Source of the DNA: Escherichia phage PinkRuby
Reading direction: 5' to 3' (one strand)
Sequence record: PP925839.1
Length of the DNA: 64,000 bases
Under the pieces are notes generated by a model that saw only the letters and a list, made by a program, of their open reading frames with translations, did no database searches and was not told the origin of the DNA. This document shows positions 15,934 through 20,173 of this stretch, one piece after another. Numbering within the stretch: the first letter of the stretch is position 1; every line of letters begins with the position of its first letter. The translations under genes were made by a program, and so were the position numbers.

Positions 15934-15988
15934 TTCCTCATGTTATGTCAGTAAAACTATTGTAACACAACACGAGGGACTTGTAAAC
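15934..15988 (-). repeat. 55-bp promoter-leader cassette, copy 1 (near-identical copy at 31724-31778)
   Basis: About 50/55 identical bases including gtttacaagtccctcgtgttgtgtta and ttactgacataacatgagga. Confidence 0.8.
15959..15988 (-). promoter_or_regulatory. T4 early-type promoter (GTTTAC -35, TACAAT -10)
   Basis: Minus strand GTTTACA-N17-TACAAT directly upstream of ORF 15637-15927; -35 overlaps stop codon of upstream alt paralog. Confidence 0.55.
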
Positions 15989-18045
15989 TACATCTTGAAC
16001 TTTTTAGACATTCCGTTGATGTTAACCAAAGAAGCCAAGATTTGAGAAACTTCGTTTTCCTCTTCTTTTGATTCTTCTACAAGGAATTGATTAAACCCAG
16101 CCATTGGACGAACTTCACCAGTTTCCATTAGATGATCGCCATCATATACCGATTCTTCTAATTGTTCAGAAGGAGGAACGATTGTGCCTTCGATTAGATA
16201 CTTATTATAAGCAGTTTCTTTCATCATGTACGTGCTCACTTTATTAATCTTCAGCAAAATTCCACGCGGTAAAATAACTTCAGCTTCTGATGGAAATCCT
16301 GATAAATGACCTGGAACGATAACTTTGATTCGCTCAGCCCCTTTAATTACCATACCTACGCTAGTTTCAGCGTCTTCATTCGCATAAGCAGAGTGACTAC
16401 CCATATGCATTAAATCTTCAGCATCAACTGAACCTTCTCCTTCGCCAGAAAATACTGCGCCGGAATCATCTAGAGCCATATAGTTTTTACCATGCTCACC
16501 GAAGATATTTGGTTTAAGCGATGTGGATACGAAGTTCTTGAAATAGAACATTTTATTTTCAATATTATGACGTAAAGTTTTAAAAGTAACTTCTTGTCCA
16601 CGATAAAGCGTAGTTCCTGGAGGAAGAACTGAACCTTTAGCGAATGCAGAATCCATTGTCTCGATGTGTTTAATAGCTCGTTCCATGTATTCTTCACGGG
16701 TAGAATCTGGTTTACCCAAGAGGAACGAGTTCATTTCAACATATGAATCTGCACAATAATCTTCTATTACATCAGACTCAGCCTGAGTTAATCCTTTTGG
16801 AGTTACTTCGGTGCTTGCGTATTCATATGCCTGAGCAGCAGATTCATTAATCAATTTATAAATGCCATTCATAACAAATTGAATAATAGCTACCTTTTCG
16901 TCTGGCGTGGCTTTAGAACCTTTAACTAAATCATTGATAATTTTCTTAATAACATCAAAGCTATTAGAAATATTAATGTCAGCGAGATCGCTCAAAATTT
17001 TATCGGTTTTATAATCAAAAAATTCTTTATTCTTTAAATATTCTTGAGAACCTTGATGTGTTATATCGCTCTGCAGTCTGATAGACGGATCACGTAAACG
17101 TGCATGAGCCAATGCAATATGATTTCGGAAGCTTTCTAGTTCATAATCGTTAGATTTAAAACGAGAAGCACTTCTCATACCACCGATAGCTCCTTTGCTG
17201 AAGTTTGAACCAATCTGGATAACGCCAGAGTTCATTGGTCCTTCTGCTTTATATACCGGAACTTTAGATTCAAACTCTTGATATTTCTTGGCAGCGAAGC
17301 TATCACCCTGAAGCGAAGCATCGACAGTAGAATATTGAGCTTGTGCTGCCAATCGACGACTAATTTTAGTTTTCTGAATAACAGCTTGATCCGTGCGCTT
17401 ATCATTTTCTAAAGCAATAGAAGCAGCAACAGCAACAGCTTTAGGAACAGCATTACCTGTTTTAACATCTACATAAACATCACCAACCTTTGATTCAACT
17501 TTTGTGAATAACTCAGTTGAAATAGGAGGTACACCTGGAATGTCTTCTAAATTGGCATTTTTACGGTAAACCATAATATATGCATACTTTTTATCGTAAT
17601 CCCAGATTTCCTTTAAAAGAACATATCGACCTGCTCCTTTAGTACGTACTAAACGGTCAGCAATAACTTGCATTTGACGAGCTGCACCATTTGTTTTACT
17701 TTTTAGTACGCGGAATAGGCATGCGTCAATTTTATACTGTTTCATTGTTTGAAGAGCAGTATCAAAAACCGCATTAATGACACCAATTGGATTTCCACCC
17801 AAGTTTTTAAGTTTAACTAATGATAGTTTCTCATTAACACCTATCATTACGATATGCATCATTTTATCGCCTGGCTTAACGTTTTTATTTGTATCACCGC
17901 CAGAGGTGTATGTACAAAATCTAAATCCAGGAAGCACACTTTCTTCACCGGCTTGAATAGCAAAAATTTGAGGTATTTTATGCTTAGGATTTAAGTTAAC
18001 AACCGGCGCCGAAGCGCCGTCAAATAATTCTGTAATAAGTTCCAT
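15988..18045 (-). CDS. Alt-like ADP-ribosyltransferase paralog (head-packaged ART family)
   Basis: 685 aa; N-terminal ~240 aa closely similar to the adjacent Alt; contains FVSTS and EAEVILPRG (R-S-E type ART motifs); divergent middle and C-terminus. Confidence 0.75.
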   Translation of the reverse strand: MELITELFDGASAPVVNLNPKHKIPQIFAIQAGEESVLPGFRFCTYTSGGDTNKNVKPGDKMMHIVMIGVNEKLSLVKLKNLGGNPIGVINAVFDTALQTMKQYKIDACLFRVLKSKTNGAARQMQVIADRLVRTKGAGRYVLLKEIWDYDKKYAYIMVYRKNANLEDIPGVPPISTELFTKVESKVGDVYVDVKTGNAVPKAVAVAASIALENDKRTDQAVIQKTKISRRLAAQAQYSTVDASLQGDSFAAKKYQEFESKVPVYKAEGPMNSGVIQIGSNFSKGAIGGMRSASRFKSNDYELESFRNHIALAHARLRDPSIRLQSDITHQGSQEYLKNKEFFDYKTDKILSDLADINISNSFDVIKKIINDLVKGSKATPDEKVAIIQFVMNGIYKLINESAAQAYEYASTEVTPKGLTQAESDVIEDYCADSYVEMNSFLLGKPDSTREEYMERAIKHIETMDSAFAKGSVLPPGTTLYRGQEVTFKTLRHNIENKMFYFKNFVSTSLKPNIFGEHGKNYMALDDSGAVFSGEGEGSVDAEDLMHMGSHSAYANEDAETSVGMVIKGAERIKVIVPGHLSGFPSEAEVILPRGILLKINKVSTYMMKETAYNKYLIEGTIVPPSEQLEESVYDGDHLMETGEVRPMAGFNQFLVEESKEEENEVSQILASLVNINGMSKKFKM

Positions 18046-18048
18046 GAT

Positions 18049-20142
18049 TTATCCTTGAACGAACTTGTAAGGCATGTTTGCAATATCTATGCAAGACGCA
18101 ATAATTCCAAGAGATGATTCTACTTTTTGTTTAACATTTGATGAAACAAATGATGCAAAGTCAACTCTGTCTTCTATTTCAATATCACCTGTCATTGCAA
18201 CTACTTCACCAGTTTCCATTAGACGGTCACCGTCATAAATTACTGATTCGGTGAGTTCTTCCGTAGTCATAACTTCAGCTTGAATGAGTTTTGTATTATT
18301 AGACGTGGTTCCGTCATTATTAGAAGCATCAGTTATTTTATTCACTTTGACCATCAATCCGCGCGGTAGAATAACTTCAGCTTCTGTTGCTATTCCGAGA
18401 CTTCCTGGATATACAACATTAACTTTATGAGCTCCATCAATTGCCCATCCTATTTGAACTTTAACGTATTCAGGATTTTCTTTATACGCTCTTATTTCGT
18501 TTGGATTAATAGTTATTCCTTCTTCATTTTTATCAACTGTCAATTCATTACGAGCTTCTGGTTCTAAAAGACCAATACCAGCATGTGTAATTCCAAAACG
18601 TCCAAAAATGATAGGAGTTAAAGAAGTAGATACAAAATTTCTGAAATAGAACACTTTATTTTTAACTAGTGCTTCGTATATAGGAGCAGTCATACTTTGA
18701 GCACGATAAACTGTGATGCCTTCCGGTATGCGGTCACCATTTTCAAAAGCTGAATCTAAGTTATTTATAGCAGATTCAATTTCTTTTTCACTCATTACAT
18801 CATATCGTTCTGGATTGTAACGACCTAAAAGAAGATTATTGATGTCAGTATATCCTGAACCGCAATATTCTCTAATGCCACGCTTTTGTGATGGAGTATA
18901 TTTAGAACCATCGCGGGCAATAGTAATATCAATCATTGGACCGGCACCAATTCCAGAAAAACTGTAAATCATTCGTTTGAGGAATTTAGTTTTTGCTGCG
19001 TTCCAGGAATTTTTAGTTATTTCTTCCCAGACTTCATCTGGTTGTCCTTTACGATTTTTATTATGATTAGTAAGCCATTTATCTTTATAATCTTCAAAGA
19101 ATTGATTTACAGCTGCTGCGTATTTCTCTAAACATTTTATTGAAGTAGTTGGTTCATTTTTAATCGCATTAAGAATTACATCTTTAATCTTTTCAGAAAC
19201 TTCATTAACCTCACTTTTTGAAAAGAATTTATAGTCATAATGAAGTTCATCTGCAGTTCCTTCAGCAATAATTTTTGCTGCCTTAGTTTTAGAAGCTAAT
19301 GAATTAATTCCAAGCTTCATTTCTTCTGCTTCGGGAATTAAAGGAGCTGTAGCAGGTTTATTGAAATTAGCTGCGGTAGATTCATACTTCTGGAATAATT
19401 CACTTTCAAATCTAGAAGATTCCAATGACTGACTTTGTGCAATTGCTCTACGGGAAATTTTAACTTTAACGATTACAGCTTGATCAGAACGTTTATCGTT
19501 TTCTTGCGCAATAGATGCTGCAATTGCCTCATTTTTAGTTACTTGAGCTCCGGTATCTTTATTGATATAAACATCGCCGACCTTCGATTCAACTTTAGTA
19601 AAGAGCTCGGTACTAATTTCCGGAACTCCTGGAATGTCTTCTAGTGATACATTTTTGCGATGTATAAGAATATATGCATACTTTTTATCGTAATCCCAGA
19701 GTTCCTTAAGAAGGACGTATCTGCCGCCTGAACGGCTGCGGATAAGTCTATCAGCAATAACTTGAATTTGTCGAGCTTGACCAGCAGTTTTAGACTTAAG
19801 AATACGAAGCATACAGGCATCAATTTTATACTGACGCATTGTTTGCATTGCAACAGTAAAAACTGAATTGATGTAATTAATTGGGCTTGGACCGAGACCT
19901 TTCAATTTAGCAATTGAGCCTTTAGCAGTTAATGTAAAAGGAACAATATGCATCATTTTATCGCCCATCTTTAAATCGCGATTAGTATCACCTCCAGATG
20001 TATAAGTACATAAACGAAAACCTGGTTGTTCAATTGCGTCATCAACATGAACTGAAAAAATTTGCGGTATTTTCTTCTTTGGATTTAAGTTTGTAATCGG
20101 AAGAGTAGTATCTTCGTCAAATAATTCTGTAATGAGTTCCAT
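18049..20142 (-). CDS. alt: Alt ADP-ribosyltransferase (internal head protein)
   Basis: 697 aa from second ATG (MELITELFDEDTTLPITNLNPKK...); FVSTS and EAEVILPRG motifs; resembles T4 Alt as I recall it. Confidence 0.8.
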   Translation of the reverse strand: MELITELFDEDTTLPITNLNPKKKIPQIFSVHVDDAIEQPGFRLCTYTSGGDTNRDLKMGDKMMHIVPFTLTAKGSIAKLKGLGPSPINYINSVFTVAMQTMRQYKIDACMLRILKSKTAGQARQIQVIADRLIRSRSGGRYVLLKELWDYDKKYAYILIHRKNVSLEDIPGVPEISTELFTKVESKVGDVYINKDTGAQVTKNEAIAASIAQENDKRSDQAVIVKVKISRRAIAQSQSLESSRFESELFQKYESTAANFNKPATAPLIPEAEEMKLGINSLASKTKAAKIIAEGTADELHYDYKFFSKSEVNEVSEKIKDVILNAIKNEPTTSIKCLEKYAAAVNQFFEDYKDKWLTNHNKNRKGQPDEVWEEITKNSWNAAKTKFLKRMIYSFSGIGAGPMIDITIARDGSKYTPSQKRGIREYCGSGYTDINNLLLGRYNPERYDVMSEKEIESAINNLDSAFENGDRIPEGITVYRAQSMTAPIYEALVKNKVFYFRNFVSTSLTPIIFGRFGITHAGIGLLEPEARNELTVDKNEEGITINPNEIRAYKENPEYVKVQIGWAIDGAHKVNVVYPGSLGIATEAEVILPRGLMVKVNKITDASNNDGTTSNNTKLIQAEVMTTEELTESVIYDGDRLMETGEVVAMTGDIEIEDRVDFASFVSSNVKQKVESSLGIIASCIDIANMPYKFVQG

Positions 20143-20165
20143 CATATCCTCTCTAGTGTTTATTC

Positions 20166-20173
20166 TATTTATA
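20166..20173 (-). promoter_or_regulatory. T4-type late promoter (TATAAATA on minus strand) upstream of alt
   Basis: Exact TATAAATA 24 nt upstream of alt ATG; paralog follows with 3-nt gap. Confidence 0.45.

Follow-up and report, generated by a model that had tools for sequence, protein, structure and literature searches.

An intact tandem pair of Alt-type ADP-ribosyltransferase genes in Escherichia phage PinkRuby and its relation to the alt locus of phage T4

We have focussed on the alt locus of Escherichia phage PinkRuby (sequence record PP925839.1), where two adjacent genes code for Alt-type ADP-ribosyltransferases (ARTs). The whole stretch of DNA analysed, 64,000 nucleotides (nt) and referred to here as the window, was assigned to Tequatrovirus (a T-even phage). 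All coordinates are those of the window and, unless stated otherwise, features lie on its minus strand. An earlier note made from this DNA had described adjacent open reading frames (ORFs) of 685 and 697 amino acids (aa) with a common MELITELFD start, and both were found. We call the upstream gene AltA (18049-20142, 697 aa) and the downstream gene AltB (15988-18045, 685 aa, beginning with MELITELFD). By position AltA is orthologous to T4 alt, and it carries what is described below as an A1 effector cassette, while AltB carries a B cassette and is the intact form of the alt.-1/alt.-2 remnant of T4; this last assignment comes from the alignment with alt.-1 and alt.-2 that the earlier note had proposed. 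The ORF of AltA (18049-20145) reads as 698 aa from a double methionine (MMELITELFD) and as 697 aa from MELITELFD, with its ATG at 20142. The alt gene of phage HEMP5 lacks the first of these two ATGs, so the second is the likely start and the 697-aa protein the likely product. Phage Ge15 has 98.7% identity to the region 15600-20450, at least 80% of which is spanned by 341 of the 542 phage records that match it. The synteny is that of the T4 Alt family: gene 30/alt.1 and alt.-3/gene 54 flank the pair, and the baseplate genes are encoded on the other strand. At the junction the two genes are separated by only 3 nt (TAA-ATC-ATG, with the AltA stop codon at 18049-18051). A Shine-Dalgarno sequence for AltB (AAGGA, 18052-18056) is found within the last AltA codons, 6 nt 5' of the AltB ATG, and a ribosome-binding site is annotated at the equivalent place in Ge15. 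This arrangement suggests that translation of AltB is coupled to that of AltA.

Both proteins match the family phrog_802 (“Alt-like RNA polymerase ADP-ribosyltransferase”) from end to end (E = 1e-255 and 3e-272) as well as PF03496 (ADPrib_exo_Tox; E = 3e-20 for AltB and 2e-37 for AltA). They align with each other by BLASTP at 42% identity (E = 4e-163), and the similarity is very uneven, 68% over residues 1-235, 12% in the middle, 34% in the ART domain and 46% in the C-terminal tail, which bears out the strong identity over the first ca. 240 residues and the divergent centre and extreme C-terminus described in the earlier note. The AlphaFold (AF2) models, with a mean predicted local distance difference test score (pLDDT) of 74.5 for AltA and 75.2 for AltB, have the same four parts, i.e., an N-terminal alpha/beta domain (residues ca. 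12-225), a middle domain predicted to be all-helical in both proteins, an ART domain of the C3/VIP2 type with an R-S-ExE signature and an acidic disordered C-terminal tail. The N-terminal module (residues 1-235) extends over 19438-20142 in AltA, where it is 100% identical to that of T4 Alt, and over 17341-18045 in AltB (for the pair, identity to the T4 Alt module is 68-100%); its assignment to PF26846 (“Tevenvirinae_ADPRT”) was precomputed for near-identical cluster representatives and does not come from a direct scan of the two proteins. Scans with NCBIfam and PADLOC gave no match for AltA, AltB or the flanking small genes.

The catalytic signature of R-S-E ADP-ribosyltransferases, as had been claimed, is intact in both paralogues. 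The motifs FVSTS and EAEVILPRG are found in AltA and in AltB, and a careful alignment revealed no loss of a catalytic glutamate or arginine in either. In an alignment of 24 sequences, with A- and B-type homologues down to ca. 42% identity, the arginine of YRxQ, the serine residues of FVSTS and both glutamates of E-A-E-VILPRG are invariant, and the Arg/Ser/ExE residues are equally invariant in 17 Alt proteins from Tequatrovirus, Dhakavirus, Biquartavirus and one Acinetobacter phage. In the AltA ART domain (residues ca. 415-632, 18247-18900) they are R480 (18703-18705), S505 (18628-18630), E587 (18382-18384) and E589 (18376-18378), and in the AltB ART domain (residues ca. 415-631, 16153-16803) R482 (16600-16602), S507 (16525-16527), E587 (16285-16287) and E589 (16279-16281). 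A search of AltB as a single sequence against the sequences of the PDB gave no match, and profile and fold searches were needed. With the profile of the 24-sequence alignment the Alt arginine falls on the catalytic arginine of C3cer and CPILE-a, and the E-x-E on their ADP-ribosylating turn-turn (ARTT) Q/E-x-E, and the fold search matched Alt to R-S-E ARTs. In T4 Alt the mutation “E577A” abolishes activity (PMC11404850); by residue mapping, E577 is the second glutamate of ExE if the numbering starts at the upstream ATG.

The signals in front of the pair are also those of T4 alt. At the end of alt.1, directly 5' of the late promoter, there is a hairpin terminator (AAAGGCC-TTCG-GGCCTTT, 20179-20196) that is annotated as such in Ge15 and is identical in T4; a terminator upstream of alt is kept in five of six T4-like genomes (PMC1524935). 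Right after it comes a T4-type late promoter box, TATAAATA (20166-20173), 22 nt 5' of the AltA ATG. The entire segment of hairpin and TATAAATA is identical in T4, Ge15, HEMP5 and 232Ecol030PP, and the 60-nt region 5' of AltA is that of T4 alt, a gene whose expression is late by RNA-seq and proteomics (PMC9697503). As T4 has this module in identical form before its late alt gene, we infer that both genes are transcribed late from the TATAAATA promoter. We found no minus-strand terminator-like site between AltA and AltB, nor anywhere from the late promoter to 15632, and the earlier note's prediction that a single late promoter, upstream of the first gene, serves both of them agrees with this. 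The first such site past the late promoter is a bidirectional hairpin terminator (15611-15632) between alt.-3 and gene 54, also annotated in Ge15.

Of the small genes flanking the pair, alt.1 (20195-20383, 62 aa) belongs to Pfam family PF24647 (“Phage_blade”), and its stop codon overlaps the terminator hairpin before the alt late promoter. On the other side, alt.-3 (15637-15927, 96 aa, DUF5498) is the last gene of the transcription unit. The gap of 60 nt between AltB and alt.-3 contains a sigma-70/T4-early-like promoter (TTTACA, 17 nt, TG-TACAAT; 15959-15987) identified by its match to the consensus (10 of 12 positions, with an extended -10), and the alt.-3 gene may be expressed early, apart from the late alt transcript.

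The earlier note considered both proteins as candidates for head packaging, and this gains support from the processing sites. In T4 Alt, two cuts by gp21, the prohead protease, were mapped by mass spectrometry to ITE-6 and LTE-619 and leave a mature form of 68.2 kDa (PMC5694885); the protein is present at about 40 copies per head and is ejected with the DNA into the host (PMC9958956, PMC9026906). Our own mapping of the sites on T4 Alt gives the published 68.2 kDa. At the homologous positions AltA keeps ITE-6 (codon E6 at 20125-20127) and LTE-632, and AltB keeps ITE-6 (codon E6 at 18028-18030) and LEE-631; in both proteins the C-terminal site is followed by S-V-(I)-YDGDxLMETGE (YDGDHLMETGE in AltB), and both P1 glutamates are kept in all 17 Alt proteins examined. 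The predicted C-terminal propeptide of AltA (residues 633-697, 18052-18246) comes after LTE-632 (18247-18249), is 96% identical to the T4 tail, is disordered in the AF2 model from residue 651, and is homologous to the 63 residues cut off T4 Alt at LTE-619. That of AltB (residues 632-685, 15991-16152) follows LEE-631 (16153-16155), and at this predicted cut, from residue 629 on, the confidence of the AF2 model collapses (pLDDT below 50). We regard the conservation of the gp21 sites as the strongest available support for both paralogues entering the prohead and being processed there.

One could suppose instead that AltB is not a virion protein at all, and that it acts late in the producing cell or is made from an internal promoter of its own at another time. 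No proteomic evidence placing AltB in virions was found, and some frameshifted alleles (see below) encode a 624-aa product without the N-terminal propeptide, that is, an unpackaged form can exist. There is also a second TATAAATA within AltA (18762-18769), 717 nt 5' of AltB. However, we rejected this octamer as a late promoter within AltA that would serve AltB. It encodes A-I-N-N and is kept in A1-type alleles alone, T4-type alleles having none, so that its presence is probably a coincidence of coding. Internal sigma-70 promoters were rejected too, since sigma-70-like sites are at chance level (19 found and 20.3 expected). Moreover, both gp21 sites, the YDGDxLMETGE motif and the C-terminal ...KF are kept in AltB and in every B-type orthologue, a conservation that would be hard to explain if the protein never met the prohead protease. 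We consider a non-virion AltB highly improbable.

Both genes are under strong purifying selection, as judged from their patterns of substitution, and appear to be functional. The ratio of non-synonymous to synonymous rates (dN/dS) of AltB is 0.037 against HEMP5 (96 synonymous and 15 non-synonymous differences) and 0.031 against 232Ecol030PP, with 84-96 synonymous and 11-15 non-synonymous differences over the two comparisons, and the values for AltA against the same Tequatrovirus orthologues are 0.063 and 0.068. This bears on another alternative, in which AltB would be a structural or pseudo-enzymatic protein of the head core, or a non-catalytic binder, that is not kept for ADP-ribosylation. 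In its favour, Alt has been called a component of the T4 prohead core (PMC9026906, PMC11404850), and the N-terminal module and the two propeptides are the most lineage-conserved parts of these proteins. Against it, R482, S507, E587 and E589 and the neighbouring NAD-binding motifs are invariant in all B-type sequences down to 47% identity, the AltB ART domain by itself has a dN/dS of 0.03, and Alt is not essential for head assembly (PMC9958956). A structural or non-catalytic AltB is a very remote prospect, and AltB is much more probably an active enzyme.

The intact pair is the majority state among the Tequatroviruses, and T4 is a derived exception. The part unique to AltB (residues 240-685) is found at 95% identity or more in 401 phage records, and both T2 and T6 have an intact pair of 697 and 685 aa with the same 3-nt gap and 98% identity to the window proteins. 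In T4 the order is alt (682 aa), alt.-1 (61 aa), alt.-2 (67 aa) and alt.-3, and the T4 record labels alt.-1 and alt.-2 as “an old duplication of the first part of gene alt”. Our alignments point to a different origin. T4 alt.-1 and alt.-2 together are near-identical to residues 1-117 of AltB, not of AltA, and two changes separate the T4 DNA from that of the window. The first is a -1 frameshift, in which a run of five A residues within the N-terminal module (17882-17886, AltB codons 54-55) has become a run of four. The second is a deletion between 9-bp direct repeats (CTAAAAAGT, at 17698-17706 and 15999-16007, spanning 15999-17706), by which T4 lacks one repeat and the intervening sequence (1,699 bp). 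A query across the T4 deletion junction was contiguous in 91 of 499 matching records, including T4 strains, RB55, RB59, vB_EcoM_112, SG1, slur03 and HY03. From this comparison of sequences we conclude that alt.-1 and alt.-2 of T4 are the wreck of a full-length second alt gene and not a partial duplication.

The order of the two changes can be read from a metagenome contig (L011, 1019-3075; cluster P0006, with 36 member sequences) that has the A4 allele and the same linked single-nucleotide polymorphism but keeps the rest of the gene, so that it reads as an ORF of 61 aa followed by one of 624 aa. Since a frameshift-only allele exists with the rest of the gene kept, the frameshift is the older of the two changes. 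This allele looks like an intermediate state of decay, or possibly reflects a site that slips recurrently. Along similar lines, two other clusters from long phage contigs contain N-terminally truncated AltB ORFs with 98-99% identity (P0008, residues 158-685, and P0010, residues 271-685, the latter on 14 contigs), suggesting further independent disruptions of AltB, or assembly errors.

A different picture emerged when the N-terminal module and the ART domain were compared separately (neighbour-joining trees, 200 bootstraps). The tree of the N-terminal module follows the genus, with Tequatrovirus A and B, Dhakavirus A and B, the 44RR pair and the Ac42 pair each grouped with 100% support, while the tree of the ART domain follows the type of cassette across genera and not the genus. 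At least three types can be recognized. A1 is found in AltA of the window, T2 and T6, in Bp7 alt and in JS98 alta; A2 (100% support) in T4 Alt, 232Ecol030PP AltA and Bp7 alt'; and B (100% support) in AltB of the window, T2, T6 and 232Ecol030PP and in JS98 altb. The two slots of the locus are thus filled in different combinations, A1 + B in the window, T2, T6 and JS98, A2 + B in 232Ecol030PP, A2 and a deleted B in T4, and A1 + A2 in Bp7. By number of records, A1 is represented by ca. 312 (at least 95% identity), A2 by ca. 174 (at least 90%), intact B by ca. 401 and deleted B by ca. 91.

Along the codons of AltA and T4 Alt the identity is 97-100% up to ca. 240, falls abruptly to 10-40%, reaches 60-73% in the ART core and is 100% near the C-terminus, with a synonymous divergence (dS) of 1.2-1.7 for the cassette vs. 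0.16-0.18 for the flanks. The reverse is found when AltA is compared with alt of the Dhakavirus Bp7, in which the N-domain is only 30-57% identical in amino acids, codons ca. 404-625 are 90-100% identical in amino acids and 87-94% in nucleotides, and the C-terminal propeptide is 40-60% identical; overall, the ART cassette of AltA is ca. 91% identical in nucleotides to that of Bp7, vs. ca. 50% in the flanks and termini. With such high nucleotide identity in the cassette and low identity at both ends, a transfer of the ART cassette between Tequatrovirus and Dhakavirus is clear, and the two termini have remained specific to their lineage. In Bp7 (L008, HQ829472, 3251-7390) we also observed A1 in the upstream slot and the T4-type A2 in the downstream slot. 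As A2 is downstream in Bp7, whereas in T4 it is in the upstream gene, one cassette type can be held by either slot. Recent gene conversion between the two N-terminal modules was considered but rejected, as they have no identical stretch longer than 32 nt and a dS of 1.3; the discordant trees are explained without conversion by the exchange of cassettes into a lineage-specific chassis, although an older conversion may have taken place. The earlier note had seen in the pair a duplication followed by divergence of target specificity. Simple duplication and divergence does not agree with the trees, in which the N-terminal module groups by genus and the ART domain by cassette type, but the divergence in specificity is plausible from the sequences.

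The N-terminal module defines a family of 69 representative clusters among 1.84e9 proteins, always in N-terminal position and with PF03496 as its partner in nearly all cases. The idea that it might be a general carrier of other cargo was set aside, as its support is weak: a distant member of 541 aa (P0184) is the sole one without an ART motif. No such motif is recognizable after its module, and it may bear a different cargo. In another distant member (P0183, 485 aa) the ART is shortened and has YK instead of YR and N-S-E instead of E-x-E.

What the two enzymes do in the host depends on their targets. The segment between STS and ExE, together with the middle domain, is hypervariable in sequence and length; the segment has between 56 and 100 residues and is unrelated between AltA and AltB. 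In ARTs of the C3/iota type this segment carries the substrate-recognition loops. Given that the NAD-binding motifs are kept, that the middle domains (12% identity) and the STS-to-ExE segments are unrelated, and that the cassette types form separate lineages across genera, AltA and AltB most likely modify different host targets. The obvious competitor is a redundant dosage pair, in which AltB would simply duplicate the work of AltA and T4 Alt, with RNA polymerase alpha and the other known substrates as targets, to provide a higher injected dose or a backup. The common family, architecture, catalytic motifs and processing sites would fit such a pair, and so would the facts that T4 grows well without AltB and that ca. 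91 records have lost it, as expected for redundancy. However, ART domains with only 34% identity, middle domains with 12% and an unrelated STS-to-ExE segment do not look like copies with one job; in Tequatrovirus as in Dhakavirus the A- and B-type cassettes have each been kept as a lineage of their own, with good support, and AltB evolves with a dN/dS of 0.03 on its own sequence, where a mere copy would be expected to stay similar or decay. We regard redundancy as unlikely.

Taken together, we consider it probable that the locus contains two functional, co-transcribed mono-ADP-ribosyltransferases of the Alt family that are delivered with the phage DNA. Late in infection both genes would be transcribed from the TATAAATA promoter, and AltB would be translated by coupling to AltA through the 3-nt gap and the Shine-Dalgarno sequence. 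Both proteins would enter the prohead core, where gp21 would trim them at ITE-6 and at L-x-E|S to mature forms of ca. 69-70 kDa, and AltA and AltB would then stay in the head and be ejected with the DNA, as T4 Alt is. In the new host, and ahead of all phage gene expression, they would presumably modify arginine residues of host proteins by ADP-ribosylation, with the NAD+ of the cell as donor. Several points weigh against this view. Taken by itself, the TATAAATA octamer occurs about as often as chance predicts in so AT-rich a window (12 found and 9.3 expected), the proposal of different targets is drawn from the divergence of the sequences, and the putative role of the N-terminal module in packaging is deduced from its lineage specificity. 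In addition, AltB is dispensable in nature, as illustrated by the T4 deletion in ca. 91 records and by the existence of other truncated or frameshifted forms, and in the literature on T2, T6 and other Tequatroviruses we found no virion proteomics, activity or target work on AltB or on an A1-type AltA.

It is possible to go one step further, and we do so tentatively. The alt locus might be a two-slot array of injected effectors, in which a genus-specific chassis (the PF26846 module and the C-terminal propeptide) receives exchangeable ART cassettes of at least three types by recombination between genera, each directed at a different host target. AltB would then be an injected enzyme with a target of its own, and its repeated loss could reflect a conditional balance of cost and benefit, e.g., a role in counter-defence or its sensing by a host defence. 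The preprints on contingency loci and on bNACHT11 make no mention of Alt.

The tandem pair as such is already known, as it is found in ca. 400 phage records, including T2 and T6. Nolan et al. (2006; PMC1524935) listed alt paralogues, among them a full-length duplicate, for RB49, 44RR and T4, and later Jin et al. (2014; PMC4177764) described the duplication of Alt in Ac42, JS98 and Bp7 and a split pair of N-domain and ART in ZZ1. In GenBank the two genes often appear as Alt-like ARTs under the names alt_1/alt_2, alta/altb or alt/alt'. What we contribute is the identification of AltB as the intact parent of alt.-1/alt.-2 with its decay in two steps, the conservation of the gp21 sites, the structure of chassis and cassettes, and the recognition that both enzymes of the window belong to uncharacterized cassette types. 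Alt is the textbook example of an injected phage enzyme that reprograms the host, with a biochemistry known almost entirely from T4. Yet T4 is atypical twice, having lost AltB and having in its remaining Alt a cassette unlike that of the upstream gene of T2, T6 and the window. Most T-even phages probably inject two ADP-ribosyltransferases, and if the locus is indeed a two-slot array, the T4 enzyme would be only one of three effector types.

The closest known system is T4 Alt itself (gpAlt, 682 aa, NP_049811), which shares with the PinkRuby pair the locus, the identical terminator and late-promoter module, the four parts of the protein, the R-S-ExE residues and the gp21 sites. AltA, whose identity to the upstream genes of T2 and T6 is 98%, is 72% identical to T4 Alt overall and 97-100% identical in the N-terminal 240 and the last ca. 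40 residues. In contrast, the central region of AltA is only ca. 47% identical and its ART domain 64% (A1 vs. A2), and the corresponding values for AltB are 34% (ART domain) and 12-14% (middle domain). The known substrates of T4 Alt include arginine 265 of RNA polymerase alpha, MazF and others. Its biochemistry cannot be simply transferred to AltA and AltB, as the cassettes of the window are A1 and B, and that of T4 is A2. The alt.-1 and alt.-2 genes of T4 are orthologous to AltB codons 1-117, but broken by the frameshift and the deletion where the window gene is intact. Tandem alt pairs with the same arrangement and architecture are present in other Straboviridae (T2, T6, JS98 alta/altb, Bp7 alt/alt', 44RR2.8t, Ac42 alt/alt.-1 and ZZ1), although the Ac42 pair has the inverse orientation with respect to gene 30 and in ZZ1 the ORFs for the N-domain and the ART are naturally split.

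Beyond phages, the R-S-E bacterial toxins (Vis, C3, VIP2, iota/CPILE-a, Certhrax, SpvB and ExoS) have in common with Alt the NAD-binding arginine, the S-T-S motif, the E/Q-x-E of the ARTT and the ART fold. However, the toxins reach their targets by secretion or through the B component of a binary toxin, whereas delivery by the phage head and DNA ejection is known for T4 Alt, and Alt adds the PF26846 module, the helical middle domain, the propeptides removed by protease and a much longer STS-to-ExE segment (56-100 residues). The internal proteins of T4 also have a propeptide that is removed by gp21 (PMC9026906, PMC5694885). As an analogy, the T4 internal proteins IPI-III and the polymorphic toxins combine a conserved, lineage-specific part for delivery with interchangeable effector parts, much as we propose for Alt. 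The delivery parts are nevertheless different, a capsid-targeting sequence of 10-20 residues in IPI-III and, in Alt, a folded domain of ca. 235 aa plus a C-terminal propeptide with a putative role in packaging.

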